From Alphaproteobacteria bacterium (GTDB lineage: Bacteria > Pseudomonadota > Alphaproteobacteria > JAJTHO01 > CANGYM01), in contig JBILRW010000002.1 in the NCBI GenBank assembly GCA_044372405.1, forward strand, positions 6,862 to 70,861: a DNA stretch of 64,000 nucleotides, written 5' to 3'. The notes beneath the pieces are model-generated. The model had not been told where the DNA came from. It saw only the letters and a program-made list of their open reading frames with translations, and did no database searches. Position numbers and translations under genes: made by a program. Shown here in pieces: positions 5,357-54,856 of this stretch; the stretch's first letter is position 1, and every line of letters begins with the position of its first letter.

Positions 5357-5850
5357 TGATGAACCTGCGCCCATGGTTTTTTGTATTTTGTGTTTTGCTC
5401 ATGACATCAGGATGTGGCTTCAGCCCTGTTTATGGCTCTGAGCAAAATACGAAACTGCCCCTCATTACACTGGACAAGGCGGAGGGAAAATACACCTTTC
5501 TTTTGGATCAGGCCCTGCGCACCCGTTTAAAATCCCGCGGAAGCTTTGCAGAAACAGGTGGAGAATGGATTTTATCCTACACCCTTTCCGAGGAAACCGC
5601 GGCTTTGGGCATTAACGAAAAGGCCTCCTCCACCTATTCCATGTTAACCATTACCACCAGTTATACCGTCAAACGTCTTGGGGATAATAAGATCCTAGCC
5701 CAGCGGTCCAGGCGTCAACGTCAGGGGTATGATATTGTCACCTCCACCTATGGTTCCGATCAAACGCTGGCCGATGCCCGCAGTAAGGCCATTGAAACCA
5801 TGGCTGATGCCATTATTCAAGATCTGGTTTTTTTATCCAAGAAGGATTAG
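5353..5850 (+). CDS. lptE: LPS-assembly lipoprotein LptE-like
   Basis: Signal peptide with lipobox LMTSGC followed by GFSPVYG, the alphaproteobacterial LptE N-terminus. About 160 aa. Confidence 0.6.
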   Translation: MMMNLRPWFFVFCVLLMTSGCGFSPVYGSEQNTKLPLITLDKAEGKYTFLLDQALRTRLKSRGSFAETGGEWILSYTLSEETAALGINEKASSTYSMLTITTSYTVKRLGDNKILAQRSRRQRQGYDIVTSTYGSDQTLADARSKAIETMADAIIQDLVFLSKKD

Positions 5851-5914
5851 AAAAGAACATCGACTCTCTTTTTGAGTTCACTCCGGTAAAAAATTAAGAA
5901 AAGGTAACACACCT

Positions 5915-6424
5915 ATGATCCGCCTGATGATTTTAACTGTTATGGTGACTTTTTTATCGGGACCGGCTTATGCCTCTTCCAAGCCAGAATCCTTAGCCAC
6001 AAACGGTTCCTGGTCGGGATATACCTTTACCGAAAACAAACAAAAAGTTTGCTACATGACGGGATCCCCTGAAAAATCTGAAGGGGATTACAAAAAACGT
6101 GGGGATGTTTTTTTGTTTATCACCCATTATCCAGGCAGTAACATTTTTGATGATCTTTATTTTGATTTGGGATACCCCGTTAAAAAAGATGGGGAAGCCA
6201 CGGTCACCGTCGGAAAAACATCCTTTTCCCTGGTGGGCGATAAAACCCATGTTTTTTCTGCTGATCGCAAGCAAGATAAAAAAATCATCAGTGCCCTGAA
6301 ACAAGGGGACACCCTGGTGATAAAATCGGTATCCCAAAAAGGCACAAAAAGTATTGATACTTTTGATTTAAAGGGGTTCGTTAAAACTTATCAGGCCATA
6401 TCCAAAGCCTGTAAAAAGCCGTGA
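5915..6424 (+). CDS. Secreted hypothetical protein (tentatively IalB-like)
   Basis: Cleavable signal peptide (…GPAYASS), two conserved-looking Cys residues, about 170 aa. The family assignment is tentative. Confidence 0.35.
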   Translation: MIRLMILTVMVTFLSGPAYASSKPESLATNGSWSGYTFTENKQKVCYMTGSPEKSEGDYKKRGDVFLFITHYPGSNIFDDLYFDLGYPVKKDGEATVTVGKTSFSLVGDKTHVFSADRKQDKKIISALKQGDTLVIKSVSQKGTKSIDTFDLKGFVKTYQAISKACKKP

Positions 6425-7737
6425 CGCCATATCACATCATTCTTTTGGCGGCGGGTAAGGGAACCCGCATGCGCTCACCCCTGCCCAAGGTTCTTCATCC
6501 TCTGGCGGGTTTTCCCCTGATCTGGCATGTTCTGCGTCTGGCAGAATCCCTGAATCCCGCGCGCGTTACCTGTGTGATCAGCCCTGATCTGGTGGATTTT
6601 TTTTCAAATTCTCCCCATCACCGGGTCATTCAAGATCCCCCGAGGGGAACGGGTCATGCGGTTCAAAAAGCCTTAGAAGATTCAAAAGACATCGCCGAAC
6701 TTCCCACGCTGGTTCTGTATGGGGATACCCCCCTACTGACCCTGAATACGGTTCACGGTTTGCTGAATGTTGAGGCTGATATGGGGCTTTTGACGTTCCA
6801 GGCCCCCCTGCCCAATCCCTATGGGCGGGTTATTGTCAAAAACGATGGGCATGTATCGCAGATTATTGAGGCCAGTGACCTTTCGGAAAGCCAAAAGCAA
6901 AACCCCCATTTTCCCCTGAATGCCGGCATTATGGCGTTTAAAGGGGGCGTTTTACCCCGTATCCTCCCCCATTTGCGACCCCATAATGCCCAGGGTGAGC
7001 TTTATTTAACCGACACCGTGGCCCTCATTGATGGCGAGGGAGGAAGCGTTCACCCCCTTTCGGCCAACGCTGAAGAGGTTTTGGGGATTAACACCCAGAC
7101 GGAATTACAAACGGCAGAAGCCGTGATGCAGGCGCGCCTGCTGAAACAACACCAGGATAACGGCGTGATCGTGGGACCCTCTGTTATTTTTTCGGCAGAT
7201 ACAGCCCTTTCCCCGGGTAGCCACATTCACCCCCTTGTTGTTTTTGGCCCTGGGGTGAAGATTGAAGAACGCGCTGTCATACATAGTTTTTCCCACCTGT
7301 CTGGTTGTACCATTCAGTCTGGCGCCAGCATAGGGCCCTTTGCCCGTATTCGTCCCCAAACGGTTGTGGGTCCATCGTGTCATATTGGTAATTTTGTGGA
7401 ATTGAAAGCCAGCACCTTGGGTACAGGCGTTAAAGCGGGGCACCTGAGTTACCTGGGCGATGCCACCATCGGGGATCATTGCAACATTGGGGCGGGCACC
7501 ATAACCTGTAACTATGATGGAACAAAGAAGCACAAAACAACCCTGGAAAGCGGCGTTTTTGTGGGATCTCACACCGCCCTGGTGGCGCCGGTGACCCTTC
7601 ATAAAGATGCCTATTTAGGGGCGGGAAGTGTGATTACGGATTCTGTGCCGCAGGACACCCTGGCCCTAACCCGATCCCCGTTAAAAACCATTTCCCAGTG
7701 GTCAAAGCGGCGAAAAAAATCCCCCTCCCCTTCATAG
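6421..7737 (+). CDS. glmU: Bifunctional UDP-N-acetylglucosamine diphosphorylase / glucosamine-1-phosphate N-acetyltransferase
   Basis: LAAGKGTRM N-terminal motif and C-terminal hexapeptide-repeat left-handed beta-helix region. The GTG start overlaps the upstream stop. Confidence 0.92.
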   Translation: MTPYHIILLAAGKGTRMRSPLPKVLHPLAGFPLIWHVLRLAESLNPARVTCVISPDLVDFFSNSPHHRVIQDPPRGTGHAVQKALEDSKDIAELPTLVLYGDTPLLTLNTVHGLLNVEADMGLLTFQAPLPNPYGRVIVKNDGHVSQIIEASDLSESQKQNPHFPLNAGIMAFKGGVLPRILPHLRPHNAQGELYLTDTVALIDGEGGSVHPLSANAEEVLGINTQTELQTAEAVMQARLLKQHQDNGVIVGPSVIFSADTALSPGSHIHPLVVFGPGVKIEERAVIHSFSHLSGCTIQSGASIGPFARIRPQTVVGPSCHIGNFVELKASTLGTGVKAGHLSYLGDATIGDHCNIGAGTITCNYDGTKKHKTTLESGVFVGSHTALVAPVTLHKDAYLGAGSVITDSVPQDTLALTRSPLKTISQWSKRRKKSPSPS

Positions 7738-8862: not shown

Positions 8863-9708
8863 CTACCAGTCGATTGTCCGTTTAGCCCCCGTCATGCTAA
8901 TCACCATGGCCACGATTTCCTCAACCGAGCGACGGGAAACACTGATGGTGGGCAGGTTGTATTTTTTGAATAATTTTTGGGCGTAAAACGTTTCCTGACG
9001 GATAATTTCTGTGGATGTATAATCATCGCAATCACCGGACAGATGCTCCGCCCGTTTCTGCCGAATGTTTCTGAGCAACGCCGGATCCTGAAGAAGCCCA
9101 ACAATCAAAGGTTTTTCAGCTTTTCCCAAAAGATCAATCAGTCGCTCATCCAAAGGCGCATCCAAAATCAAGGGAACATTGGCCGCTTTAATCCCTTTAT
9201 AGGAAAGATAAACGCAGCAAGGTGTTTTTGACGAGCGCGACACCCCGAGTAAAATAACATCCGCCTGATGAATCGTATCCAAACCGTGACCATCATCGTG
9301 GTTCAGGGCAAAATCCACCGCATCAATGCGCTGAAAATAGGCGCTGTCCAAATCATGCTGTCGTCCTGCTTTGGGGGCGATGCGGGACCAGCCTTCCCCT
9401 TCTAAAAAGGATAATAAGGGCCCTAGCAGGGAAATACAGGGCAATCCCAAACGATCGCATCCCTTTTTAAGTTCTTGAAATAGCGGATCATCCACCAGGG
9501 TACAGATGACAACCCCCGGCTGATCCTCAATTTTTTTTAAAATATGGAGAATTTGCCGGGGCGTATGCACAAACGGCCATAAATTTTCCACAATATTGGT
9601 TTTTTTAAATTGGGCAAAGGCGGCCCGCCCCACCTTCGTGACGGTTTCCCCTGTGGAATCAGAAACAAAGTGAACGCACACTTCCTGTGGGTTTGTGGAT
9701 AATACCAT
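8863..9708 (-). CDS. ppsR: Pyruvate, phosphate dikinase / PEP synthase regulatory protein (DUF299 kinase/pyrophosphorylase)
   Basis: VHFVSDSTGET and GVSRSSKTPCCVYLSYKGIKAANVPL (P-loop) motifs. Confidence 0.85.
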   Translation of the reverse strand: MVLSTNPQEVCVHFVSDSTGETVTKVGRAAFAQFKKTNIVENLWPFVHTPRQILHILKKIEDQPGVVICTLVDDPLFQELKKGCDRLGLPCISLLGPLLSFLEGEGWSRIAPKAGRQHDLDSAYFQRIDAVDFALNHDDGHGLDTIHQADVILLGVSRSSKTPCCVYLSYKGIKAANVPLILDAPLDERLIDLLGKAEKPLIVGLLQDPALLRNIRQKRAEHLSGDCDDYTSTEIIRQETFYAQKLFKKYNLPTISVSRRSVEEIVAMVISMTGAKRTIDW

Positions 9709-9795: not shown

Positions 9796-9804
9796 TGTGG
9801 ATAA
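9796..9804. promoter_or_regulatory. Perfect DnaA-box 9-mer (TGTGGATAA, the reverse complement of TTATCCACA)
   Basis: Lies in the AT-rich 248-bp divergent ppsR/ybeY spacer. A 7/9 box, TTATCCTTT, sits at 9832-9840. Confidence 0.25.
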
Positions 9805-12657: not shown

Positions 12658-13985
12658 AGGATACAGACACCCTCTACGCGCCCATCACAGGCCGAGGGGG
12701 CGCGGTATGTGTCTATCGGCTTTCGGGGCCTGATGTTCTTTCGAAGATTCAGGCGCTAACGGGGAGGGTTTCTTTCAAACCTCGTTACAGCTACAAGGTT
12801 TCCCTTATTTCTCAAGAGGGAGACATCATCGATCCGTCCGCGCTCGTCACTTTTTTTCCGGGCCCCAAAAGCTATACGGGGGAAGATGTGGCCGAGGTTC
12901 ACCTTCATGCCAGTAAAGTTGTGAGCGATCACTTTTGTTCTTTTCTGCACAAAAAAGGCCTTCGTTTGGCCGAGCCCGGGGAGTTTTCCCGGCGGGCGGT
13001 TTTGAATGGAAAGATGACTTTGGATGAGGCCCTGGGCGTCCGTTACCTGATTGAATCCCAAACCCAACAGCAATATCGGGCGGCCCTGGCCCAGATGACG
13101 GGACAAGACAGATCTTTGGTTCATCAGGATTTTGAAAATGTTCGTGAACACTTGCTTTTATTGTTGCGGGACGCCGAGGCATCCTTGGAATTTCCCGACG
13201 AAGAGGATATTTCCCGTGAAATTGAGCGATCACTCACAAAAAAAATGCAAGATTTGCTTCCTGTCTTAAAAAACCACCAGAAGCTTTATGAAAAAAAAGA
13301 AATGCTGCGGGCGGGCATTCCCGTGGTTTTGATGGGGCCCCCCAATGTGGGGAAGTCTTCGTTGCTTAATGCCTTGGCCAGGGAAGAATACGCCTTGGTT
13401 TCCGACATTCCAGGCACGACAAGGGACGTGGTTCAGGTGCTGGTGAACTGGGGCGGCTACGCGGTGCGCTTGATCGATACGGCGGGGTTACGGGAAACGG
13501 AGGACCCGTTAGAAAGAATGGGCATGGCCCGTACGCTTAAGCAGGAAGAATCCGCCAGAATCACCCTTTTGATGTTGGATGAAAAAACATTGGATCAGGA
13601 AGCCGTGTTGCGCCAACAATGCCAATCTCCCAACATCATTGTTGTTTTCACAAAGGCTGACGTATTTTTCTATCCCCAGAAACCTGGTGTTGTGAGCGTT
13701 TCCTCACAAACCAGAGTGGGCTTGGATCATCTGGAATTCACCGTTCAATCGATTTTAGAGGTAGAGTTTTCAGGTGCTATTGAAAAAGCGGATATGGGGG
13801 AAACGATTAAGGTTCTTTTGGATCGGGCGTTGATTGGGTTAACCTCAGCCATCCAAGAAAAAAGATTGGAAATCAGGGTTCAAATCCTTTATGATCTCGC
13901 AGAAGTCCTGGCATCTATGATCCCCGATATTGATCGGGAAGAGGTCATGGATCGTATTTTTTCAGGGTTTTGTATCGGCAAATAA
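12654..13985 (+). CDS. mnmE: tRNA modification GTPase MnmE
   Basis: [13 protein letters not shown]1 motif, DTAG, and the C-terminal FCIGK. ATGA overlap with lnt. Confidence 0.92.
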
Positions 13986-23621: not shown

Positions 23622-23741
23622 GGGCGAAATCCTTTAAAGGCCTATAATGATTTTCGTTTGTAGCACGATTCCCGTGGTAGGCAACAGAAAGTCGTGCAGG
23701 CCAAACCATAAGTGATCTTTATGTCCTTGTATTAGGGGCGT

Positions 23742-24068
23742 TGAGGGGCGGGACGGTTTTCTTTGTGGTTCAAGGGGCGAGACGGAAAAAATACCGCAGC
23801 GGCGGCCTCGGTAGAGGGCGGCGCGAGGATGATTTTTTGCGGATCGACGTAGTGAACCCCTTGAACCACAAAGAAAAATGTGGGGGTGGGAGCAACGGCC
23901 CTTTGTTTGAAGAAAAGGCTCCCACCCAGCAGGATTTTGGTGAATATCAAGGGGTACGCGTTGCCTCGCACCAAAAAAGCCGCCGCTGCGCGGCTTTGCT
24001 ACGCAACTTTTTTGGCGTCTCGCCCCTATGACATTCCCCAAAATCCTGCTGCCCTGACCCCGCCTTTT
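23742..24068 (-). repeat. ~325-bp composite palindromic structured element, copy A (reverse complement aligns to copy B)
   Basis: Aligns end to end with 44892-45215 in inverted orientation. Internal helices are 23759-23777/23857-23875, 23884-23893/23918-23927 and 23927-23940/24038-24051. Confidence 0.85.
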
Positions 24069-24072
24069 CCCC

Positions 24073-24264
24073 CTACCCCTCAGACCCCCACAGCGCCGCC
24101 ACACTGTGTTCCATGGGATTGAGAAGGGGCGCCGTTAAGGTTTGTTCCTTCCCCGTTACGGGATTCATGAAGGTTACGGACTGAGCATGTAAATGCAATC
24201 CCGGGGCCAGACGCAGGGGAAGGGGCTCCACCCGACCGTATTTTCGATACCCTTCATTGCTCAT
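24073..24264 (-). pseudogene. C-terminal remnant of an RluA-family pseudouridine synthase
   Basis: KYGRVEPLPLRLAPGLHLHAQSVTFMNPVTGKEQTLTAPL corresponds to the last ~50 aa (LHA..l.F.HP.TG motif) of RluA/RluD-type enzymes. The ~200 aa catalytic part is missing. Confidence 0.6.
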
Positions 24265-27897: not shown

Positions 27898-27939
27898 GGC
27901 TCGGTAGCTCAGCGGTAGAGCAGGGGAATCATAATCCCT
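27898..27939 (+). pseudogene. Duplicated 5' half of tRNA(CAT): acceptor 5' strand, D-arm and the whole anticodon arm
   Basis: 40 of 42 nt match 28076-28117. The two differences form one compensatory anticodon-stem pair (G-C here, A-T in the full gene). No T-arm or acceptor 3' strand follows. Confidence 0.8.
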
Positions 27940-28063
27940 CGCTCAGCCGCCGTGATACGGGCTGGAAAGAACGACATAACAAAGGCTTACGCCGATGCTA
28001 TGTTGACCAGAAATTTTTGCGGTCATGCCATGGTCATGGGCAGGGTTGCAAAAGACGTTTTAT

Positions 28064-28075: not shown

Positions 28076-28150
28076 GGCTCGGTAGCTCAGCGGTAGAGCA
28101 GGAGAATCATAATCTCTTGGTCGGGGGTTCAAATCCCTCCCGAGCCACCA
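28076..28150 (+). tRNA. tRNA with CAT anticodon (elongator Met or lysidine-modified Ile2), CCA encoded
   Basis: Cloverleaf: GGCTCGG/CCGAGCC acceptor, GCTC/GAGC D-stem, anticodon loop ATCATAA, GGTTCAAATCC T-loop. It is not an initiator (G1-C72, no 3xGC at the base of the anticodon stem). From memory, the variable region CTTGGTCG resembles E. coli ileX. Confidence 0.9.
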
Positions 28151-29689: not shown

Positions 29690-30130
29690 TTAGCGCGGCC
29701 TAAACGGCACCACTTTTCCCGCACTTTGCTTTGTCTCCGCAATCGCTTTGCTGATGTGCTCTGCGGCCTGTCGAAGTTGCGTGTCTGCAAGATGCGCGTA
29801 GCGCAGCGTTGTCTGATACTGGCTGTGCCCCAGCAGTGCGCCAATCATCGGCAACGAATACCCTAAACTATTCGCCATGCTGGCGTGGCTATGGCGGAGG
29901 TCATGGAGGTGCAGGTCTTCCAGCTTGGCTGCCGCGCAAATCCGCTTCCATGCCTTGGCGACGTTGTTCATGGGCTTACCATCCATCCGTTCACTACAAA
30001 TCACATAAGGATTGCCGTTCACCCGTTTGAGGCTGGCAAAAATATCCAGCATCGGTTCGGTGATGAAAATTGTCTTGGCGCGTTTTTCCTTGGTAGAGGT
30101 GCGCGGAATGCGAATGTCGCGTTCGTCCAT
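29690..30130 (-). pseudogene. Tyrosine recombinase/integrase, C-terminal catalytic fragment only
   Basis: HDLRHSHAS (HxxR) and LLGHSQYQTTLRYAHL (catalytic Tyr) are present. The N-terminal arm/core-binding domains and the first catalytic Arg region are missing. 146 aa, against a typical length of about 350-400. Confidence 0.8.
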
Positions 30131-32198: not shown

Positions 32199-32480
32199 AT
32201 GGCCCAGCCCCAACCCAAAGAAGCGATTTCCATCAATATTCGGGCCCGGACGCGCCAGCGGGATTTGATCGACCAAGCCGCAGAGCGCGTCGGGCGCAGT
32301 CGATCGGACTTTATGTTGGACGCGGCTTGCCGCGAAGCGGAAAATGTTTTGCTCAATCAGGTGTTTTTCACCGTGAACGCCAAAACATATGCCGAAATTG
32401 AGGCGCTGCTGGATAATCCCTTGCCGCCAACGGACAAACTTCGTCGTCTCATGAATACCAGAGCGCCGTGGGAAGTCTGA
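32199..32480 (+). CDS. tacA: DUF1778 (TacA-type, RHH) antitoxin
   Basis: 93 aa. ISIRARTRQRDLIDQAAERVGRSRSDFMLDAA is the typical DUF1778 core. Stop/start overlap (TGATG) with the GNAT toxin. Confidence 0.8.
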   Translation: MAQPQPKEAISINIRARTRQRDLIDQAAERVGRSRSDFMLDAACREAENVLLNQVFFTVNAKTYAEIEALLDNPLPPTDKLRRLMNTRAPWEV

Positions 32481-33010
32481 TGATACAGACCTTAACGGCG
32501 CCCGTGCCCCTGACCACGGATCACCACCTGAATGACTTCACCTGTGGAGAAAGGGTTTTGGATGACTGGCTGAAGGCTCGCGCCCTGCATAATCATAGAG
32601 AAGGGATTTCCCGTTGTTTTGTCCTATGTGCGGACAATAAAGTTGTGGGGTATTACTGCCTGTCCGCTGGCGGCATTCACCGAGAAGCGGCCCCCGGCGT
32701 ATTACGAAGAAATATGCCGGATCCTTTACCCATCATCGTCCTGGGGCGTCTTGCCATGGATCAGGGCTATCACAACCAGGGATTGGGTAAAGCCTTGCTG
32801 CGTGATGCCATAGCGCGGGTGATAGAAGCGTCACAGTATATTGGCCTTGTGGCCATTCTTGTGCATACTCTCTCGATATCCGCCAAGCGCTTTTATCTGT
32901 CATGCGGATTTGTTGAATCCCCCCTGCAACCCATGACATTGATGATGACCGTGAAAACCATCAGGATGCTCCTTGGTGAAGCCAAAACGGCCACGCCTTC
33001 TATTTCTTAA
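32480..33010 (+). CDS. tacT: GNAT-family acetyltransferase toxin (TacT/AtaT/KacT-type)
   Basis: FTCGERVLDDWLK..., VVGYYCLSAGGI, LGRLAMDQGYHNQGLGKALL (acetyl-CoA binding). Paired with a DUF1778 antitoxin. Confidence 0.8.
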   Translation: MIQTLTAPVPLTTDHHLNDFTCGERVLDDWLKARALHNHREGISRCFVLCADNKVVGYYCLSAGGIHREAAPGVLRRNMPDPLPIIVLGRLAMDQGYHNQGLGKALLRDAIARVIEASQYIGLVAILVHTLSISAKRFYLSCGFVESPLQPMTLMMTVKTIRMLLGEAKTATPSIS

Positions 33011-43482: not shown

Positions 43483-44010
43483 ATGACCCAAGGGCCGACC
43501 CAACAGCCAACCCAAGAGCGTAGTCATATTATCGCCGTTTTGGTGGATAATGAACCTGGTGTTTTGGCCCGCGTCATTGGTTTGTTTTCGGGGCGTGGCT
43601 ATAATATCGAGAGTTTAACGGTTTCGGAGGTTGATGCGGATGCCATGCTCTCCCGCATTACCTTGGTCACGCGCGGCACACATCAAATTATTGAACAAAT
43701 TAAGGCCCAGTTGTTTCGCATTGTCCCCGTTCATACCGTCAAGGATCTAACGGAAAATGGCCCCGTTGTGGACCGTGAATTGGCTTTGGTCAAGGTCCTC
43801 AGCCAGGGGGAAGCTCGATTAGAGGCTATGCGTCTGGCCGAAATTTTTCGCGCGCGGGTGGTGGATAGCACGTTGCAATCCATGATTTTTGAGGTCTCGG
43901 GCCGCACAGAGAAAGTTCAGGCTTTTATCGACCTGATGACCCCCCTGGGCTGCATTGAAATTGTACGGACAGGGTGCGTGGCCATGGCCCGGGGGGAGCA
44001 CCCCTTTTAA
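43483..44010 (+). CDS. ilvH: Acetolactate synthase small (regulatory, ACT-domain) subunit
   Basis: HIIAVLVDNEPGVLARVIGLFSGRGYNIESLTV is the typical IlvH/IlvN N-terminus. There is no large-subunit gene adjacent. Confidence 0.85.
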   Translation: MTQGPTQQPTQERSHIIAVLVDNEPGVLARVIGLFSGRGYNIESLTVSEVDADAMLSRITLVTRGTHQIIEQIKAQLFRIVPVHTVKDLTENGPVVDRELALVKVLSQGEARLEAMRLAEIFRARVVDSTLQSMIFEVSGRTEKVQAFIDLMTPLGCIEIVRTGCVAMARGEHPF

Positions 44011-44014
44011 AATA

Positions 44015-44893
44015 ATGACCCCGCTACCCCGTCATCTTCATTTTGTGGGCTTTGGCTTGATTGCCTCATCCCTGGCCCGTGCGCTTAGGGCCTTGGATCC
44101 CACAATTCACCTCACGGCTTATGATCACAATCCGTCTGTTCGGCAAACGGTCCGTGACTTGGGCCTGGCCGATCACGTTGTGGAGGACTTAAACCCCGTT
44201 TCTGAAGAGACAGATCTTGTCCTTATTGCCGTCCCCATGCTGGCCTTTTCTGAGGTTTTAAGGGCCATCAAAATTCCCCCAAACGCCATCATCACTGATG
44301 TGGGATCCGTCAAGGGCACCGTGGCGGAGGCCCTGTATGCCCATGCCCTGGATCTTTTACCCCGTTTTGTTTTGGGCCATCCTTTGGCGGGAACGGAACA
44401 CAGTGGTCCTGAACATGGTTTTGCGACGCTCTTTCAGGATCGTTGGTGCTTATTAACCCCTCTGCCGGAAACGGACCCTGATGCGTTGGACGCAGTGAAA
44501 TGCCTCTGGCAGGCCGTGGGGGCCAAGGTCAACACCATGAGTGTGGCGCACCACGACCAAATTCTGGCCATAACCTCGCACATTCCCCATTTGATTGCCT
44601 TTACCATTGTGGACACGGCCATGACGTTAGAGGACGATTTACGGCAAGAGGTGATTCAATATGCCGCCAGTGGATTTCGGGATTTTACCCGCATTGCGGC
44701 CTCGGACCCCACCATGTGGCGGGATATTTTTTTAACCAACCGCGATGCCGTTTTATCCATGCTGGATCGCTTTACGGAGGATTTGGATGTTTTAAAAACC
44801 GCCATTCGCCAAGGAAACGGAGATGTGTTGTTTAAAAAAATCACCGATGCCCGGGCCATTCGTCGGGATATTATTGCGGCAGGACAGGCTTAA
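44015..44893 (+). CDS. tyrA: Prephenate/arogenate dehydrogenase
   Basis: Rossmann-type N-terminus (HFVGFGLIASSLA), GSVKG, GHPLAGTEHSGP motif. Start at the ATG at 44015. Confidence 0.85.
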   Translation: MTPLPRHLHFVGFGLIASSLARALRALDPTIHLTAYDHNPSVRQTVRDLGLADHVVEDLNPVSEETDLVLIAVPMLAFSEVLRAIKIPPNAIITDVGSVKGTVAEALYAHALDLLPRFVLGHPLAGTEHSGPEHGFATLFQDRWCLLTPLPETDPDALDAVKCLWQAVGAKVNTMSVAHHDQILAITSHIPHLIAFTIVDTAMTLEDDLRQEVIQYAASGFRDFTRIAASDPTMWRDIFLTNRDAVLSMLDRFTEDLDVLKTAIRQGNGDVLFKKITDARAIRRDIIAAGQA

Positions 44894-45215
44894 AAGGCGG
44901 GGTGGGGCAGCAGGATTTGTCCCCTGGGTCAAGGGCGAGACGCCAAAAAAGTTGCGTAGCAAAGCCCCGAAGGGGCGGTCTTTTTTGGTGCGAGGCGAAG
45001 CGTACCCTTGAGCTGGGGGGCAAATTCTGCTGGGTGGGAGCCTTTTCCTTGTGGGCCGAACGCGGCTCCCGCCCCCACATTTTTCTTTGTGGTTCAAGGG
45101 GTTCGCTGCGCCGATCCGAAAAAAATCATCCTCACGCCGCCCTCTTCGAGGCCGCCGCTGCGGTATTTTTTTCGTCTCGCCCCTTGAGCCACAAAGAAAA
45201 CCGCCCCACCCCGCC
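44892..45215 (+). repeat. ~325-bp composite palindromic structured element, copy B
   Basis: Inverted homolog of 23742-24068. Terminal inverted repeats are GGCGGGGTGGGG (44897-44908) and CCCCACCCCGCC (45204-45215). It starts on the tyrA stop codon. Confidence 0.85.
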
Positions 45216-45225
45216 GCGTTTCGAA

Positions 45226-45489
45226 TCAACCCAAAAACTCATCAACATAAACATGCACAGGCTTTTCCCAACCGGGGGTGGCGCAGGTGACAAAAACGCT
45301 GTGCAGGTGTCCCTCTAAATTATTTTCCCAAAACGCCAGGAATTTTTTCAGCGTGGGAAAAAAGCGGGGCACATCCAAATCCTGCCACAGATAGGTCTGT
45401 AGCAATGACGGGTAGTCAGGAAAATAGTACGTGATCTCGGCCGTGGTCAGGACATAATGTGTTGGGTGAAAGAGCGTTGTTGTGTCCAT
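45226..45489 (-). CDS. usg: Usg-family protein
   Basis: LTTAEITYYFPDYPSLLQTYLWQDLDVPRFFP..FLAFWENNLEGHLHSV matches the alphaproteobacterial Usg-like family. Confidence 0.75.
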   Translation of the reverse strand: MDTTTLFHPTHYVLTTAEITYYFPDYPSLLQTYLWQDLDVPRFFPTLKKFLAFWENNLEGHLHSVFVTCATPGWEKPVHVYVDEFLG

Positions 45490-45513
45490 GGCTCAAGATA
45501 TTTTCCGTGGTTT

Positions 45514-47838
45514 TCATCCGCTGATGGTGGCTTTTATGGTTTTGCGCGGCGGCTTTTTGGTAGGGGGGGCGGGGTGAAGGCTCCCCTCCTGAATATCAAA
45601 ATGCAGCTGCTCGTTTTCCAAAACAATGCAAACATTACCGCCTTTGACCAATTTGCCAAACAACAGCTCTTCGGCCAGGGGCTTACGGACATAATCCTGA
45701 ATCACGCGGGCCAGAGGACGCGCCCCATAATCCGGATCGTATCCTTTGTTGGCCAGCCAAACGCGGGCATCATCGCGAATATCAATGGTGACATCTTTGT
45801 CGGTTAATTGGGCCTCTAACTCCACAATAAATTTATCCACGATGGTTTCCACGTGTTCGCGGCCCAGCTTTTTAAAGGAGATGGTGGCATCCAGACGATT
45901 GCGGAATTCGGGGGTAAACAGGCGATTGATGGATTCTTTTTCATCCCCACTTTGCCGTTCCTGTTTAAAGCCCAAAGCCGTTTTGGATAAAAGATCCGCC
46001 CCCACGTTGCTGGTCATAATCAAAATCACATTGCGAAACGAAATGGATTTTCCGTTATGATCTGTCAATTTTCCGTGGTCCATGACCTGGAGTAAAATAT
46101 TAAAAAGATCAGGGTGCGCCTTTTCAATTTCATCCAGCAACAAAACACAATAGGGACTTTGCTCAACCTTATCGGTCAACAGACCCCCCTGTTCAAACCC
46201 AACATAGCCTGGGGGCGCGCCAATCAAACGCGATAAACTGTGTTTTTCCATATATTCAGACATGTCAAAACGCAGCAAGGGAATGTGCATCAGGCTGGAT
46301 AATTGGCGGGCAACCTCGGTTTTTCCCACGCCCGTAGGGCCGCTAAACAGATAGCACCCAATGGGCTTTTCAGGATCCCGCAATCCCGCCCGCGAGAGTT
46401 TCAACGCGGCATCCAGCTGATCAACGGCATCATCTTGACCAAAAATCACGGTTTTTAGTGTGCTTTTCAGAAGATAAAGCGTTTCTTTATCGGTTTTGCT
46501 GATATTTTTTTCAGGAATGCGGGCAATTTGGGCCACAACGCCCTCAATATCCCGCCGTGTAATGATTTTTTTTCGTTTGGAGGGAATTTGCAGATGTTGG
46601 GCCGCCCCGGCTTCATCCAAAACATCAATGGCCTTATCGGGTAATTTGCGGTCGTTGATATAGCGCACAGACAGGGTAACGGCGGCTTTCAGGGCTTCCT
46701 GCGCATATTTAACCTGATGGTGCGCCTCGTAATAGGGTTTTAATCCTGTAATAATTTTCAGGGTGTCGGCCTCAGAGGGTTCTGCCACATCAATTTTCTG
46801 GAAACGACGCACCAGGGCGCGGTCTTTTTCAAAATGCCCCCGGAATTCTTTATAGGTTGTGGCCCCGATGCAACGCAGGGTCCCTCGGGCCAAGGCAGGC
46901 TTAAGAAGGTTCGAGGCATCCATGGCCCCGCCACTGGTGGCACCGGCACCGATCAGGGTATGAATTTCATCAATAAACAAAAGGGCATTTTTCATGCCCT
47001 CCAGATAATGAATCAGGTTTTTCAGGCGTTCCTCAAAATCCCCCCGATACCGCGTACCGGCCAGCAAGGCCCCCATATCCAGGCTGTAAATCTCGCAATT
47101 TTTCAGAACTGCCGGCACGTCGCCCTCAACAATTTGACGGGCGAGCCCCTCGGCAATGGCGGTTTTTCCAACACCAGGATCGCCCACCAGTAAGGGATTG
47201 TTTTTGGTGCGACGGCATAAAACCTGAATGGTCCTGGTAATTTCATCCGCCCGCCCAATGATGGGATCAATTTTTCCCTCGGCGGCGCGGTGATTCAGAT
47301 TGATCAGATAACTGCCTTGATCCCGATTCTTGGTCTCAGATTCCTGGGGGTCTTTTTCGGCGGTGGTTTGAGAAGGCGAAGCGGCGGAAGGATTCGTGGG
47401 CTTGCCGCCCTTGGCAATGCCATGGGAAATATAATTCACCGCATCAAAGCGGGACATGTCTTGTTCCTGTAAAAAATAAACGGCATGGGATTCGCGCTCG
47501 GAAAATAGGGCGACTAAGACATTAGCCCCTGTGACTTCAGAGCGGCCCGCCGATTGAACGTGAATCACTGCGCGCTGAATCACCCGTTGAAACGCCGCTG
47601 TGGGCTTGGGGTCCTGGGGCATGGCGGTAACGAGGTTTTTGAGTTCCTTGTCCAGATACTGGGAAAGGGAATACGTTAATTTTTTCAAATCGACATTACA
47701 GGCCTTCATAACGGTGGAGGCCTCGCGGTCATCGGCCAGGGACAACAATAAATGCTCCAGCGTGGCAAATTCATGATTGCGCTCACCGGCCAAATCCAGG
47801 GCGCGGTGCAGTGTTTTTTCCAAGTTTGATGATAACAT
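45514..47838 (-). CDS. clpA: ATP-dependent Clp protease ATP-binding subunit ClpA
   Basis: Clp N-domain, two AAA+ modules (GDPGVGKTAIAEGLA and GPTGVGKTEVARQL), preceded by clpS. Confidence 0.96.
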   Translation of the reverse strand: MLSSNLEKTLHRALDLAGERNHEFATLEHLLLSLADDREASTVMKACNVDLKKLTYSLSQYLDKELKNLVTAMPQDPKPTAAFQRVIQRAVIHVQSAGRSEVTGANVLVALFSERESHAVYFLQEQDMSRFDAVNYISHGIAKGGKPTNPSAASPSQTTAEKDPQESETKNRDQGSYLINLNHRAAEGKIDPIIGRADEITRTIQVLCRRTKNNPLLVGDPGVGKTAIAEGLARQIVEGDVPAVLKNCEIYSLDMGALLAGTRYRGDFEERLKNLIHYLEGMKNALLFIDEIHTLIGAGATSGGAMDASNLLKPALARGTLRCIGATTYKEFRGHFEKDRALVRRFQKIDVAEPSEADTLKIITGLKPYYEAHHQVKYAQEALKAAVTLSVRYINDRKLPDKAIDVLDEAGAAQHLQIPSKRKKIITRRDIEGVVAQIARIPEKNISKTDKETLYLLKSTLKTVIFGQDDAVDQLDAALKLSRAGLRDPEKPIGCYLFSGPTGVGKTEVARQLSSLMHIPLLRFDMSEYMEKHSLSRLIGAPPGYVGFEQGGLLTDKVEQSPYCVLLLDEIEKAHPDLFNILLQVMDHGKLTDHNGKSISFRNVILIMTSNVGADLLSKTALGFKQERQSGDEKESINRLFTPEFRNRLDATISFKKLGREHVETIVDKFIVELEAQLTDKDVTIDIRDDARVWLANKGYDPDYGARPLARVIQDYVRKPLAEELLFGKLVKGGNVCIVLENEQLHFDIQEGSLHPAPPTKKPPRKTIKATISG

Positions 47839-47842
47839 CCGG

Positions 47843-48163
47843 TTATTCCCTCTCGATCATACATTGCAGAGGATGCTGGTGCTTTTGAACCACCCGACGA
47901 ACCTGGGCCACCTTGGTTTCGGCAATTTCCAGCGTGTAAACGCCGCAAATTCCAGATCCTTTGGTGTGTATATCCAGCATAATTTTTGTGGCATCCTCTA
48001 ACGTTTTTCCAAAATAGGTCTGCAAAATGTGGACCACAAAGTCCATGGGTGTGTAATCGTCATTCAGCATCACAACCCGATACAGCGACGGACGACGCAA
48101 CCGAACACTGGTTCGGGTGCGAAGGTCGGTATGGATTTCGGCCGTACGATCATAAAACGCCAT
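47843..48163 (-). CDS. clpS: ATP-dependent Clp protease adaptor ClpS
   Basis: YRVVMLNDDYTPMDFVVHILQ..F......A..IML.IH..G. Start at the ATG at 48163. Confidence 0.9.
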   Translation of the reverse strand: MAFYDRTAEIHTDLRTRTSVRLRRPSLYRVVMLNDDYTPMDFVVHILQTYFGKTLEDATKIMLDIHTKGSGICGVYTLEIAETKVAQVRRVVQKHQHPLQCMIERE

Positions 48164-48363
48164 GCTTGCGGGACCTATCTTGAGGATCAGTTTAGAGAAA
48201 AAGAGTGAATAAAACGTCTCACCACCGTACATTTTTAACTAAATCATTGAGATAATTCGTTTCCCGTGTATTTTGTGGTTTGATAAAAATCATAAAAACA
48301 AGGAGGTGCACGATGCAAGGTGCCGCGAACGAATCATTCCAGGTCGTAAGATAGCATTTTTTG

Positions 48364-48393
48364 ATGCATCCTGCAAGGATTGCGTGTTTTTTT
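48364..48393 (+). terminator. Plus-strand intrinsic terminator between two minus-strand genes
   Basis: Hairpin 48364-48385 (core ATCCT-gca-AGGAT, extended by GC pairs) followed by T7 at 48387-48393. Confidence 0.45.
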
Positions 48394-48432
48394 AATCAAA
48401 ATCAATAGAATGGTGAATGTCCCCGTACGGCT

Positions 48433-48699
48433 CTATTTCTTTGTAAGAAAAAGGGTTTCTATCGCTGATTTTAGGGGCAAAGGTAAATCCTGGGGCAGCG
48501 AGAGATCGCCAAAAACCATGGCGGTGAGTTCGGGCTCAGATCGCTGTAAAAAAACCGCTAAATGAGGCAAAAGATCATCGGGGAGATTCGGCAAAACCTC
48601 CCCAAGGACACGCCCCATAACGCGATCCAGCTCTTTGGTCCCCCGATAGGTAAGCTGGTAGGTTAATTTCTTTCGCAACAAAGCCGAGGATTCTGGCAT
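48433..48699 (-). CDS. sdhE: Succinate dehydrogenase FAD assembly factor SdhE/SDHAF2 (DUF339)
   Basis: LRKKLTYQLTYRGTKELDRVMG...L..FL...EPEL matches the flavinator family pattern. Confidence 0.7.
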   Translation of the reverse strand: MPESSALLRKKLTYQLTYRGTKELDRVMGRVLGEVLPNLPDDLLPHLAVFLQRSEPELTAMVFGDLSLPQDLPLPLKSAIETLFLTKK

Positions 48700-48702
48700 A
48701 TT

Positions 48703-49101
48703 TTAAGCAACAGCACGCTTAATTTGTGCATCCAGACGACCCAGACGGATATAAATGTCATTGCTGCGTTTTAAAAGAACTCTTAAGCCATCGGGCAAGG
48801 CCTCGGAGGCCTCTTCTTCTTGAAAGCGGCAAATATCATCGTTGGTAATGGTGAACCCCATGGCGGTGGCATCATCGGCACTCATTTCCCCCTTTTGAAC
48901 CGCCCGTTGCGCCAAAAGCCAGGACATCATTTCCAAAAGACGCGATGTCAAACGTGTGGCATGATACGTCATGGCCAAGCGATCCTGAACCTTGGCATGC
49001 TGACGCAATCCAGGCAGAACAAATTTAATGTAATTTTTGGCCTCGCACAGTAAATCATGAACATCTTTGTAGGTGTTGTCTAAAAGAAAAGCGATGGCCA
49101 T
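48703..49101 (-). CDS. rcdA: DUF1465 protein (RcdA-like regulator of CtrA degradation)
   Basis: LLCEAKNY......TRLTSRLLEMMSWLLAQRAVQKGEMS matches the DUF1465/RcdA core. Confidence 0.65.
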   Translation of the reverse strand: MAIAFLLDNTYKDVHDLLCEAKNYIKFVLPGLRQHAKVQDRLAMTYHATRLTSRLLEMMSWLLAQRAVQKGEMSADDATAMGFTITNDDICRFQEEEASEALPDGLRVLLKRSNDIYIRLGRLDAQIKRAVA

Positions 49102-49146
49102 GGAGAATCTCCTGAAATTAAGGTTTCTTTTTTGAGTGTCCCCTAT

Positions 49147-49161
49147 TTAATCATTTTTTAA
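49147..49161. promoter_or_regulatory. CtrA-box consensus TTAA-N7-TTAA upstream of rcdA
   Basis: TTAA(49147-49150)-tcatttt-TTAA(49158-49161), 46-60 nt upstream of the rcdA start codon. Confidence 0.3.
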
Positions 49162-49169
49162 CTAAAATG

Positions 49170-49685
49170 TCAATTCTTTTTTAATGTTTGGCGAGAACGG
49201 TTGTTTTCTTTGTTTATTTTCAAAGAAAACAGACCACAAAAAACCATCAGTGTCGAAAGAATGACATTCATATCCGCCATACTGAATCCCATCCAGACAA
49301 AGGCCGGTTTGTCGCAGGGAACGACGGTGGCCTGCGAAATTTTGGCCTCTAGCTCGGCCACGGTGCCGACATTTTCAAGAGTATTGGCACAGGCGGGAAA
49401 TGTCCATAACCCGGCCTCTACCCCCGAATGGTAAAGCCCCAAAACGAGGCTGAGGACCCATAACCCTGTGATAACCATAAAAACCTGACGAGGCCGGAGA
49501 GATTGATAAAAAGCCGAGAGCAGGCCTATTCCCACAATCACGATGTAGGGTATGCGCTGATAAACGCATAGGGGGCAGGGCCTTAAATCAAACCCATACT
49601 GAGCAATGCCCGCAACGGCCAGGGCCAAGGCCGCAACAACACCGCTGTATAAAGGGAAGTGATAAAAAAGGGCAGGGGGCTTCAT
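49170..49685 (-). CDS. dsbB: Disulfide bond formation protein B
   Basis: Four TM segments, CPLCVYQRIPY motif and a second Cys pair in the periplasmic loop. Confidence 0.8.
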   Translation of the reverse strand: MKPPALFYHFPLYSGVVAALALAVAGIAQYGFDLRPCPLCVYQRIPYIVIVGIGLLSAFYQSLRPRQVFMVITGLWVLSLVLGLYHSGVEAGLWTFPACANTLENVGTVAELEAKISQATVVPCDKPAFVWMGFSMADMNVILSTLMVFCGLFSLKINKENNRSRQTLKKN

Positions 49686-49724
49686 GGACTTTATTATGTC
49701 ATGCTTTTACGCCTAAGCCAATGG

Positions 49725-49763
49725 TTTGATCGTGGGGTTTGATCGTGGGGTTTGATGGTGCGG
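49725..49763. repeat. 13-bp tandem repeat x3 (TTTGATCGTGGGG, TTTGATCGTGGGG, TTTGATGGTGCGG)
   Basis: Read directly from the sequence. Copies at 49725-49737, 49738-49750 and 49751-49763, in the dsbB/FemAB-like divergent spacer. Confidence 0.85.
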
Positions 49764-49773
49764 ATGTCTATCC

Positions 49774-50727
49774 TTGCCGTGGTGTTGGCAACCCTTTACA
49801 AATCATGGGATGCACGTCACCTTTCCCTCTTGGCAAAAAGAATGGCGCTGCGCTCTTGCCCAGGGGGATAGAGTGCCCCTGGAACAAAGCTGGGGTTATG
49901 GCGAAGCTGTGGCCAGGAGGTACGGCGCAAAAATCACCCGTTTATTCATTCATCCTGCCCCGGAAAGCCCCCCTGTGGCCTGTGTTCAGGTCTTACAAAA
50001 AAGGGGCATCACCCAAATTTTACGGGGCCCTGTCTTTTTGTCCCCCCTTTCCCTGCCAGAAAAAAAGCAGGTGATTCAAACGCTGCGCCATCATTATCGT
50101 TGGCATGGTTTAACCCTGTTGTTTCCGGATCTGCCCGATACCCCCGATCATCGGTCGCTGCTGAGACAGTCCCGTTTGTTGCGGGTGCAGGCAGGGTATC
50201 AAACGGTCTATGTGGATTTGGCCAAAGCGTTAGAAACTTTACAGGCAGCGTGTCGGACTTCGTGGCGGCAGGATTTGCGTCAGGCCCTGTCTTGGGAAGA
50301 TGTTGATATTGTGCGTGTTTCCCAACATGCCCCCTTAGAATGGTTTTTGGATGCCCACGAAGCCTTTCGTAAAACCACAAAAATTAAGGCCCCGTCCCGG
50401 GCGTTTCTGTTAACACTGTATCAAAATTTTCTTTCCCATCAAGAAGGTATGATCTTGCTGGCCAAACACAAAGGGCCCTATCAGGCAGGGATTATGATCC
50501 TAAGTCATGGCAACACCGCCACCTATTTTGCGGGGGTCACGACGCAGGGGGGGCGGATGATTAAAGCCAACCATCGCCTGTTGTGGCATGCCATGGATCT
50601 TTTGCAGCAACAGGGGATTCGCTGGCTGGACCTGTGCGGCCTGAACAGCAAAACCATGCCAGGGGTAACTCACTTTAAACGGGGACTGCGGGGGGAAGAG
50701 GTTCGCCTGTGCGGGACCTATATTTAG
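49774..50727 (+). CDS. FemAB-like / GNAT (Acetyltransf_6-type) family protein
   Basis: The C-terminal region ..GNTATYFAGVTTQGGRMIKANHRLLWHAMDLLQQQGIRWLDLCGLN......GVTHFKRGL resembles the FemAB-like acyltransferase fold. The start is uncertain (ATG at 49810 is also possible). Confidence 0.5.
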   Translation: MPWCWQPFTNHGMHVTFPSWQKEWRCALAQGDRVPLEQSWGYGEAVARRYGAKITRLFIHPAPESPPVACVQVLQKRGITQILRGPVFLSPLSLPEKKQVIQTLRHHYRWHGLTLLFPDLPDTPDHRSLLRQSRLLRVQAGYQTVYVDLAKALETLQAACRTSWRQDLRQALSWEDVDIVRVSQHAPLEWFLDAHEAFRKTTKIKAPSRAFLLTLYQNFLSHQEGMILLAKHKGPYQAGIMILSHGNTATYFAGVTTQGGRMIKANHRLLWHAMDLLQQQGIRWLDLCGLNSKTMPGVTHFKRGLRGEEVRLCGTYI

Positions 50728-50745
50728 GGCCACCTATCGATTTTG

Positions 50746-50830
<85 letters not shown>

Positions 50831-50843
50831 ACGAAGGACATGA

Positions 50844-51788
50844 TTATGGCATATCTTGCCCCACCGCGTCGATAAAATCCTGTGGCCAGGGACAGGAAAA
50901 ATCCATTTTTTCCTGCGTTAGGGGATGAAGAAAAGACAAATGGGAAGCATGCAGGGCTTGCCGCTGAATGCTGGTCGTTTGTCCCCGTCGCCCCCCATAA
51001 ACAGGGTCCCCCACCAGGGGATGCCCGATATGCTGCAAATGCACCCGAATCTGGTGTGTGCGGCCGGTATCCAGGTGGCAGACAATCAGGCTTTGATCCC
51101 CTAAAATTTTCAATGTTTCGTAATGGGTCACGGCTTCCTTGCCGTTTTTAGAAACCACCGCCATTTTTTGCCGATGAACAGGGGATCGCCCCATCAGGGT
51201 TGCGATGGTGCCCTTGGGCGGTTTGGGGATCCCCCAGCATAACGCATGATAGGTCCGCTTCAGGCTGCGGTCCTGAAATTGCGCCACCAAATGCCGATGG
51301 GCGATTTCTGTTTTGGCCACCACCATCAGGCCGCTGGTGTCCTTATCCAGCCGGTGCACAATGCCTGGGCGTTTGATATCGCCAATGCCGCGCAAATTCT
51401 CCCCGCAATGGGCCAACAGGGCATGAACCAGGGTTCCCTGGTCATGACCTACGGCGGGATGAACCACCATACCGGCGGCTTTGTTGATGACCAGCAGGGA
51501 TTCATCCTCAAAAACAATAGCCAAACCAATGGCTTCGGGTATCAATTCACTGGGTCGTGCCTCTGGCGGCGTGACGCAAAATGTTTGTCCTGCTTCAACG
51601 CGCTGAGAAGGCCGCAGGGTCAGGGTATTGTTGGTAAGGTGAACATGCCCCTCCCGAATCCACCGCTGAATTTGACTGCGGCTGCCCTCTGGCCAAAGGC
51701 CAGACAGCCAAACGTCCAGACGCTCGCCATCGTCTTTGGGGGATACGGTAAAAAACACAAAATGTTGGCCTTTCTCTTTATCCCTCAT
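50844..51788 (-). CDS. rluD: 23S rRNA pseudouridine synthase, RluD-type (S4 domain + RluA family)
   Basis: S4-like N-terminus (RLDVWLS), HRLDKDTSGLMVVAK catalytic motif, LHASHLSFLHPLT C-terminus. Start at the ATG at 51788. Confidence 0.9.
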   Translation of the reverse strand: MRDKEKGQHFVFFTVSPKDDGERLDVWLSGLWPEGSRSQIQRWIREGHVHLTNNTLTLRPSQRVEAGQTFCVTPPEARPSELIPEAIGLAIVFEDESLLVINKAAGMVVHPAVGHDQGTLVHALLAHCGENLRGIGDIKRPGIVHRLDKDTSGLMVVAKTEIAHRHLVAQFQDRSLKRTYHALCWGIPKPPKGTIATLMGRSPVHRQKMAVVSKNGKEAVTHYETLKILGDQSLIVCHLDTGRTHQIRVHLQHIGHPLVGDPVYGGRRGQTTSIQRQALHASHLSFLHPLTQEKMDFSCPWPQDFIDAVGQDMP

Positions 51789-52497: not shown

Positions 52498-52531
52498 TCA
52501 GAGCCTCTTATCAAGGGAAAGCAGGGTAGGA

Positions 52532-54786: not shown

Positions 54787-54856
54787 AGTTTTTGAACGCG
54801 TTTTGTATCATAATCATTTCCCGTGCGACATACCAGAGTCAATTTAGGCATAAACG

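Follow-up and report, generated by a model that had tools for sequence, protein, structure and literature searches.

Analysis of a 64,000-nucleotide stretch of contig JBILRW010000002.1 from an alphaproteobacterium (positions 6,862 to 70,861; hereafter the window, in whose numbering coordinates are given unless another contig is named) identified two copies of a structured element of about 325 bp. The element represents a previously undescribed family that is non-coding, contains multiple hairpins and is scattered in some genomes of uncultured freshwater Alphaproteobacteria. With a probability of roughly 0.5, we interpret it as a non-autonomous palindromic repeat similar to repetitive extragenic palindromic (REP) sequences, bacterial interspersed mosaic elements (BIMEs) and REPINs, with a probable secondary role as a 3'-end hairpin or terminator cassette. 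The element is real, new and cleanly structured, yet of a kind that is common in bacteria. It most resembles mobile palindromes of the REP/BIME/REPIN type or of the MITE type (miniature inverted-repeat transposable elements), and less a known RNA gene. We have filed it as a palindromic interspersed repeat, outside the REPINs, the MITEs and all RNA families.

Alignment by blastn of copy A (23742-24068, minus strand, 327 nt, the core homologous to copy B) with copy B (44892-45215, plus strand, 324 nt) gave 82.7% identity over 330 columns, end to end, with the match ending at 45212 to 45215 in copy B, and a MAFFT alignment agreed with this picture. An earlier reading of the window from its letters alone (the original prediction) had estimated the identity at roughly four-fifths, which was accurate. 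It had also described a two-copy family, and this holds within the 64-kb window, where blastn with both copies at a word size of 7 found no third copy or fragment, but not overall, as the family is multicopy and present in other genomes. The invariant 21-mer CTGCTGGGTGGGAGCCTTTTC occurs exactly twice in the window against 0 expected, at 23912-23932 (minus strand) in copy A and as an exact match at 45027-45047 (plus strand) in copy B. Protein coding was rejected for both copies, based on 1-nt insertions and deletions between them and on open frames that change. In addition, a concatenated six-frame translation of the two copies, used to catch spurious open reading frames (ORFs) on other copies, had 0 matches in the protein database, and blastn of the element against plasmid and phage records returned nothing meaningful.

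Each copy is predicted to fold as a G/C-rich closing stem, P0, around three hairpins, H1, H2 and H3. The minimum free energy was -156 kcal/mol for copy A (shuffles, -110 +/- 5; z -9.1) and -182 kcal/mol for copy B (shuffles, -130 +/- 6; z about -9), with 0 shuffles as stable in either case, and DNA folding parameters gave the same architecture with the same z of about -9 as RNA parameters. In copy B, the 5' strand of P0 (GGCGGGGTGGGGC, 44896-44908, plus strand) pairs perfectly with 45203-45215 (GCCCCACCCCGCC) to form a 13-bp terminal inverted repeat, followed inward by H1 (44909-45031), H2 (45032-45074) and H3 (45081-45200). In copy A, on the minus strand, the 5' strand of P0 (24053-24064) pairs with 23747-23756, and the hairpins are at 23927-24051 (H1), 23885-23926 (H2) and 23757-23877 (H3). 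The core extent given in the original prediction was confirmed, with the amendment that the folded unit of copy A is wider, at about 23735-24088 (minus strand), owing to an extra outer stem (GGGGG.TCTGAGGGG / CCCCTCAA.CGCCCC) that appeared when 23715-24115 was folded and the flanks paired around the core. In the family, the core is about 325 bp and the unit with outer arms up to about 400 bp. By eye, the 5' flank of copy A weakly resembles the outer arm of a longer form of the element found at other loci (compared with L008-L012, described below). Contig L021, from another sample, stops at window position 24118, 50 nt short of the copy A core, and the repeated unit there may for this reason reach further.

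The internal organization of H1 and H3 is hierarchical. Both are built in three layers, in which a conserved outer stem surrounds a short stem that is hypervariable, and this in turn a conserved TCAAGGGG/CCCCTTGA stem that encloses an inner module. In H1 of copy A the outer stem is CAGCAGG/CTGCTG and the middle stem is the hypervariable one, while in H3 the outer stem is TTTTCTTT..TCAAGGGG / CCCCTTGA..AAAGAAAA and includes a covarying block of 5 bp. A gapped pattern for the inner module (GGGCGAGACG, A-run, T-run, CCCTTGA) had four matches in the window against 0 expected, one in each H1 or H3 hairpin. These were at 23947-24025 (H1, minus strand) and 23775-23864 (H3, plus strand) in copy A, and at 44933-45011 (H1, plus strand) and 45094-45182 (H3, minus strand) in copy B. 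The modules, 79-90 nt long within hairpins of 120-125 nt, are thus inverted paralogues of a single module of about 80-90 bp, which makes the element a palindrome of palindromes. Self-complementarity over the whole element is 65-72%.

In the comparison of the two copies, the original prediction proved correct on the flipped hairpin pair, on the central hairpin and on the helix with paired changes. The hairpin at the tip of H1 is GCCCC-GAA-GGGGC in copy B (44964-44976) and GCCGC-GCA-GCGGC in copy A (23994-23982, minus strand), with the fourth pair flipped between C-G and G-C. Each tip resembles a terminator, as the hairpin is followed by GGCTTTTTTG in copy A (23972-23994, minus strand) and by GGTCTTTTTT in copy B (44964-44986, plus strand). 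The stem of the central hairpin, H2, is kept as GGGTGGGAGC(C)/(G)GCTCCC(A/G)CCC, with a U.G pair in copy B, around loops that are unrelated; its 5' arm and the end of H1 together hold the invariant 21-mer. The helix beside TCAAGGG(G)/CCC(C)TTGA has been almost wholly replaced between the copies with its complementarity retained. The tetranucleotide GTAG stands 4-5 nt ahead of the H1 tip hairpin in copies A and B and in the copy at locus L006, is replaced by GTCG at locus L013, and is absent from the H3 module of copy B and L006.

The covariation check that the original prediction had proposed was performed with RNAalifold on seven sequences from different genomes, representing about five to six independent lineages, and its measures are descriptive and not R-scape statistics. 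The seven sequences shared the same three-hairpin fold with 105 consensus pairs. Two-sided changes that kept pairing in at least one sequence were found at 28 of these pairs, compared to 7-11 when the partners were slid by 1-3 columns; under the same sliding, the proportion of paired cells fell from 95.5% to 47-58% and the covariation score from 0.208 to 0.046-0.067. None of 500 column shuffles reached any of the observed covariation measures. Two-sided changes were concentrated in the H1 middle stem (13 of 26 pairs) and in the 5-bp block of H3, whose variants are GTGGT/ACCAC, CTGTG/CACAG and TGGGG/CCCCA. The stem of H2, the 21-mer and 40 nt of H3 that are in part unpaired hardly differed between species, while the H2 loop varied freely. 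Two wobble pairs were also conserved, a U.G pair in 7/7 sequences (columns 245/282) and a G.U pair in 5/6 (columns 25/140). As a description, this evidence of covariation is strong, and it supports the claim that the helices are maintained at the level of secondary structure, which is not what the decay of a dead repeat produces. Arm-swapping by inversion was considered as the cause of the change from a G-rich to a C-rich H1 middle stem and was rejected, since a perfect palindrome is unchanged by inversion.

Searches with Rfam 15 matched the element to no family, in agreement with the original prediction, which had not recognized it as a known insertion-sequence end, REP, attC or riboregulator. 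At gathering scores only two tRNAs were identified in the window and nothing on the element, and copy B at permissive E-values returned only chance-level miRNA and snoRNA matches far below the gathering scores.

At least five other metagenomic genomes or contigs contained homologues of the element, which occupy about ten unrelated positions between genes. Searches of public collections of genomes and metagenome contigs with exact 22-mers of two conserved blocks had 0 matches. Relatives were detected with a gapped pattern of the features common to H1 and H3 (homologues in three other Alphaproteobacteria metagenome-assembled genomes, or MAGs), a degenerate H3 pattern (two metagenome contigs) and the invariant 21-mer (one contig in IMG/VR). 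No complete genome carrying the element was found in the public collections searched by the exact 22-mers and patterns. The neighbors of the copies are pepA, tyrA/usg, an EamA gene, an amidotransferase/transglutaminase gene, ackA, a CmcI-type methyltransferase gene, dnaQ, lpxB, an aspartate-aminotransferase-like gene and pal, and none of the sites is orthologous to another. Four contigs (L001-L004) of other samples have genes in common with the window and end inside the element, which breaks short-read assemblies. One contig, L005, has a copy 99.7% identical to copy B joined to a different 5' flank with the EamA gene, indicating that the host population holds further near-identical copies.

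The copies outside the window were heterogeneous in extent. Full-length copies lie upstream of the amidotransferase/transglutaminase gene (L006), past a terminator and convergent with lpxB (L012), and past pal and its terminator among host genes (L022, 128-452, minus strand). The last of these is the most palindromic copy, 72% self-complementary, and its H1 core is of the H3 type. Its contig is listed as viral in IMG/VR, with pal, rpsA and holB as neighbors and a gene for a large serine (prophage) recombinase at 5760-7100, 5 kb away. Four copies from one MAG (L008-L011) are 5' halves at contig ends. Upstream of ackA, L007 is a derivative consisting of H3 only, with perfect 26-nt inverted ends, and L013, past an aminotransferase gene, is a copy 88% like copy B that has been split by an insertion sequence.

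L006 and L008-L012 are 94-97% identical to one another and constitute a long form with terminal inverted repeats of about 20 nt (CAGGGCTGTTYATTTCTGARCA). The outer arms of the long form bear a terminal motif, CAGGGCTGTTC, that also ends a separate repeat of about 105 bp (family 2). Based on this shared motif, the long form has the look of a BIME-style mosaic, with the core lying inside a small MITE. The family 2 repeat is itself unrelated to the main element and was observed at L022 1324-1452, with partial copies at L022 1-125 and L019 1-90. Its terminal repeats are inverted (CAGGGCTGTTC/GAACAGCCCT), a hairpin lies between them and 9 bp (CGTCAAACC) are directly repeated on both sides; by these sequence features it looks like a genuine MITE.

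Both window copies are intergenic in an otherwise ordinary alphaproteobacterial chromosome, with efp, mreB, tig, clpP, mnmG, pheT, pepA, mutL, dnaG, rpoD, lysS and clpA/S among its genes. Proteins of Alphaproteobacteria MAGs share 75-85% identity with the window TyrA, compared to only about 56% for those of Stellaceae/Rhodospirillales, which indicates that the host represents an uncultured lineage. Copy A is 120 nt upstream of pepA, and both of its neighboring genes are on the same strand as the copy. Copy B occupies the spacer between the convergent genes tyrA and usg, with its 5' end inside or just past the tyrA stop codon (TAA, 44891-44893) and its 3' end 10 nt ahead of the usg stop (45226).

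In relatives with 75-77% TyrA identity, no element was found after tyrA or in about 50 kb around it. These relatives have a FemAB-like gene 14 nt after tyrA, and in the window this gene is 5 kb away and the neighboring block is inverted, which places copy B at a rearrangement (synteny) breakpoint. Comparison of window 43955-55501 with L014, L017 and L018 showed that gene order diverges exactly at copy B, where a usg-clpA-clpS-sdhE-DUF1465-dsbB block is interposed, and that the rluD..Tim44 block is inverted beyond tRNA-Leu.

The insertion sequence that splits the L013 copy is a 1.39-kb IS110-family element (L013 1342-2733) located within H2, between GGGTGGGAG and CCTTTTCC. Its transposase is of the DEDD type (DEDD_Tnp_IS110 and Transposase_20 domains) and is frameshifted. 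The non-coding end of this insertion sequence carries GAAAAGGC and TGTGGGAG, which match the insertion site, namely the invariant 21-mer. Its relatives in L019 (160-1560; transposase 95% identical) and L020 (255-1650; 69% identical) differ from it exactly at these guide-like words, and their own words match their own flanks, a pattern in the sequences as expected for a bridge-RNA guide. Bridge-RNA-guided IS110 elements are known to target REPs (PMC11208160, PMC12288879). The matching guide-like words show that copies of the element are numerous enough to act as a landing pad. These two closest relatives by transposase are in other targets, and their contigs added no further copies of the element.

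The original prediction had left the choice between a structured RNA and a folded DNA as an either/or. Based on the inverted paralogous modules, the equal folding of both strands, the truncated and nested variants and the synteny breakpoint, the evidence leans to the branch of mobile or mosaic DNA. The predicted folds of the plus and minus strands were -156 and -168 kcal/mol for copy A, -182 and -169 for copy B, -195 and -197 for L006, and -197 and -196 for L012, so that both strands fold about equally well. The H3 module repeats that of H1 in inverted orientation, so that DNA would present the same site twice but a single RNA strand two differing sequences. Together with the existence of truncated, nested and more symmetric variants, these data favor DNA.

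In the mechanism that we propose, the folded single strand, a cloverleaf of hairpins, would be what is recognized, as DNA exposed in replication or transposition or as a read-through transcript. A structure-specific enzyme acting in trans would spread the element, and resident copies would probably persist as 3'-end hairpin or terminator cassettes, a suggestion based on copies lying directly behind stop codons or terminators and having GC hairpins followed by T-runs. Target-site duplications were sought at the only two copies with both ends visible, L012 (..GTTTTTTC | ATCAAGACG..) and L007 (..GGTGAGAT | ACACGATA..), and none was found under any plausible boundary; likewise, the 5' flanks of ten copies shared no conserved target motif. 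These two negatives argue against DDE cut-and-paste transposition and against targeting of the IS200/IS605 type.

The closest concepts are the REPIN/REP-BIME elements, mobilized by REP-associated tyrosine transposases (RAYT, or TnpA-REP, of the Y1 HUH type), and the cruciform-like bcr1 repeat. Two-sided compensatory changes are common in REPIN hairpins (PMC3116915), BIMEs are mosaic combinations of modules (PMC3333891), and bcr1 is a cruciform-like repeat with compensatory changes (PMC3184786). Like REPINs and BIMEs, the element is extragenic and multicopy, lacks a target-site duplication and has two inverted palindromic modules with a spacer; in both window copies the module was found once in H1 and once, inverted, in H3. 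Also shared are two alternative folds (a single long hairpin or a "clover" of local ones), compensatory hairpin changes, module mosaics and targeting by the IS110 family (PMC11208160, PMC12288879). The differences are an extra central hairpin and closing stem, the lack of a RAYT among the window ORFs scanned, and size, as REPIN/REP-BIME modules are 20-40 nt in units of about 70-110 bp whereas those of the element are 80-130 nt in units of 325-400 bp. The bcr1 repeat of the Bacillus cereus group is likewise a dispersed non-coding repeat with independent, cruciform-like stem-loops and compensatory changes, and its genomic distribution is not conserved between relatives (PMC3184786). However, bcr1 is about 155 bp with 5-bp direct repeats at its ends, while the element has no duplication that we could see, no sequence similarity to bcr1 and a host of a different phylum.

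Other known systems were more distant. Palindrome-associated transposable elements (PATEs) derived from IS200/IS605 resemble the element in the proposed structure-dependent, strand-specific recognition of hairpins in single-stranded DNA without duplication. PATEs require no terminal inverted repeats and insert 3' of a fixed tetra- or pentanucleotide, whereas the element ends in inverted repeats and its 5' flanks have no common motif. Integron attC sites were rejected because the element is 325-400 bp compared to 57-141 bp for attC, because its neighbors are housekeeping genes, and because no integron integrase or cassette array was present among the window ORFs scanned. Rho-independent (bidirectional) terminators share with the element a GC-rich hairpin followed by a T-run, a 5' A-run that pairs with the T-run, and locations behind stop codons or between convergent genes. 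Terminators need only about 30-40 nt, however, against 325 for the element, and the spacing of stem and T-run in the element (GGC or GGTC) is not ideal.

Several observations weigh against the interpretation as a REPIN-like mobile repeat. Pfam searches of 51 of the 65 ORFs of the 64-kb window, the part of the host covered, identified no transposase and no Y1 transposase or RAYT; apart from one truncated integrase ORF, the scanned ORFs were housekeeping genes. No pair of sequences showed an excision or an empty site with exact boundaries. At 80-130 nt, the modules also greatly exceed REPs in size. The GTAG ahead of the tip hairpin, which would correspond to the conserved 5' GTAG/GTGG beside the stem of REP units, is only partly conserved and not universal, as the GTCG of L013 shows. 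The 17% difference between copies A and B within one genome means that they are not from a recent burst of one master copy. Helix mismatches, counted with a fold that forbids G.U pairs, were of the G.T type in 15 cells and of the A.C type in 3, or about 8 against 2-3 distinct sites, a weak excess that suggests that one particular strand folds. Terminator-like sites are all on the plus strand of the element in copies A and B, as are 4/5 in L012, and eight of the ten copies are co-oriented with the upstream gene. The points on wobble, terminators and orientation fit a function purely at the RNA level equally well. These counts are not decisive, and the same signal would be expected from an intermediate of single-stranded DNA if it were strand-specific.

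The main rival explanation, which we regard as possible without favoring it, is a cis-acting structured RNA in the 3' untranslated region of the upstream gene or in an intergenic transcript. Its cloverleaf, with GC hairpins and U-tracts, would terminate transcription and/or protect the 3' end, selection would act on the fold of the RNA, and copies would have spread by recombination or a rare route. Functional RNAs would be expected to show covariation of this level, and the conserved G.U pairs and the G.T excess noted above are consistent with this rival, as are recent substitutions within the L006/L012 subfamily (L009, L010 and L012) that turn G.T into A-T pairs. A terminator consensus was matched at the H1 tip in A, B and L012, and this site, a motif match only, is kept across species with a compensatory swap. 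In addition, B, L005, L009 and L013 start 0-25 nt past the stop codon of the upstream gene. Against an RNA role, H3 carries the reverse complement of the H1 module, so that a single RNA strand would contain two different sequences, and the predicted fold of the minus strand is no worse than that of the plus strand. L010 and L011 face away from the neighboring gene, the terminator scan was not enriched over shuffles (4 compared to 2.1 +/- 1.4), Rfam gave no match, and the 8/10 orientation and the wobble asymmetry are not statistically decisive.

A more radical alternative, a new kind of replicator or RNA, appears doubtful to us, namely that the cloverleaf of about 325 nt is, in its single-stranded form, the substrate of a novel mobility system that reads structure and belongs to neither the DDE nor the classical RAYT/REP type, or else a new class of large, multicopy, 3'-end structured RNA. 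The hypervariable yet always complementary middle stems of H1 and H3 would in that case carry copy-specific information.

We consider it improbable that the element is a classical MITE, that is, an internally deleted derivative of a DDE insertion sequence mobilized in trans through its terminal inverted repeats, with incidental internal hairpins. The likeness to bacterial MITEs such as Correia/NEMIS, ERIC, RUP and Nezha, which can supply terminators or processing sites, extends to terminal inverted repeats, lack of coding capacity, intergenic location, multiple copies and a stable predicted RNA hairpin. The size is also compatible, as MITEs reach about 400 bp (PMC3184786), and the inverted ends of the long form (CAGGGCTGTTYATTTCTGARCA), of L007 (26 nt, perfect) and of copy B (13 bp, perfect) are of the required kind, as is the 9-bp direct repeat (CGTCAAACC) of the neighboring small repeat with the same terminal motif. 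However, no target-site duplication was present at L012 or L007, and the window copies, without the outer repeats or with only a degenerate version of them, are nonetheless multicopy. The outer arms look instead like a separate small MITE enclosing the core. The element has three separately covarying hairpins where MITEs have one terminal-repeat stem, and 28 pairs that covary between species would not arise from incidental palindromes. An insertion sequence with the same ends did not turn up, although no search was aimed at one.

Template switching in quasi-palindromes is a well-established source of mutations, by which one arm takes over a change from the other, and compensatory changes can arise without selection by such hairpin-templated correction, an alternative absent from the original prediction. 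That the repeats are dead and their stems complementary only through templated repair or template switching would account for an H1 middle stem replaced in blocks and for two strands that fold about equally well, but we regard it as highly improbable, as unpaired sequence has been kept over long stretches, both from species to species and from H1 to H3 (for example TCAAGGGGTTCRCTRCGYCG...AAAAAATCATCCTC and the 21-mer) while the H2 loop drifts, G.T wobbles persist uncorrected, and recent spread is shown by L005 (99.7% to copy B) and by the long form (94-97%).

If the interpretation as a REPIN-like palindromic repeat is right, the element represents an undescribed family of large, hierarchical palindromic repeats in an uncultured freshwater alphaproteobacterial lineage. 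Its unusually clear cross-species covariation at non-orthologous sites would make it a good case for studying what maintains the hairpins of bacterial repeats, the candidates being RNA function, single-stranded-DNA transposition and templated repair. The IS110-family insertion would then provide a second and independent case in which insertion sequences of the bridge type have retargeted to repeats of their host. In practical terms, the element fragments metagenome assemblies and marks rearrangement breakpoints in these genomes.

Additional features of the window were observed during these analyses. A 63-aa ORF at 24073-24264 (minus strand), which abuts copy A, resembles the C-terminus of an RluA-type pseudouridine synthase. 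Its origin as a recent duplicate of the synthase gene of the window (50844-51827) was rejected, as the two share only 32% identity over 22 aa. The 5' part of tRNA-Met has a partial duplicate of 47 nt at 27898-27944, 178 nt upstream of the tRNA gene (28076-28150), and a truncated phage-type integrase ORF (146 aa, 29690-30130) lies 1.5 kb downstream of it; the two may be the remnant of an integrated element. Between mutL and dnaG (32199-33010), a TacA-like antitoxin ORF overlaps an ORF for a GNAT acetyltransferase, and the two look like a TacAT-type toxin-antitoxin pair.

Upstream of mnmG (gidA), 818 nt (13152-13969) have no ORF of at least 70 aa, and neither an Rfam match nor a cluster of DnaA boxes was found in this gap. 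Over the whole window, 9-mers resembling DnaA boxes (TTATCCACA, one mismatch allowed) numbered 29 compared to 12.9 +/- 3.3 expected and were scattered, not clustered. Two DnaA boxes were perfect, at 9694-9702 and 9796-9804.

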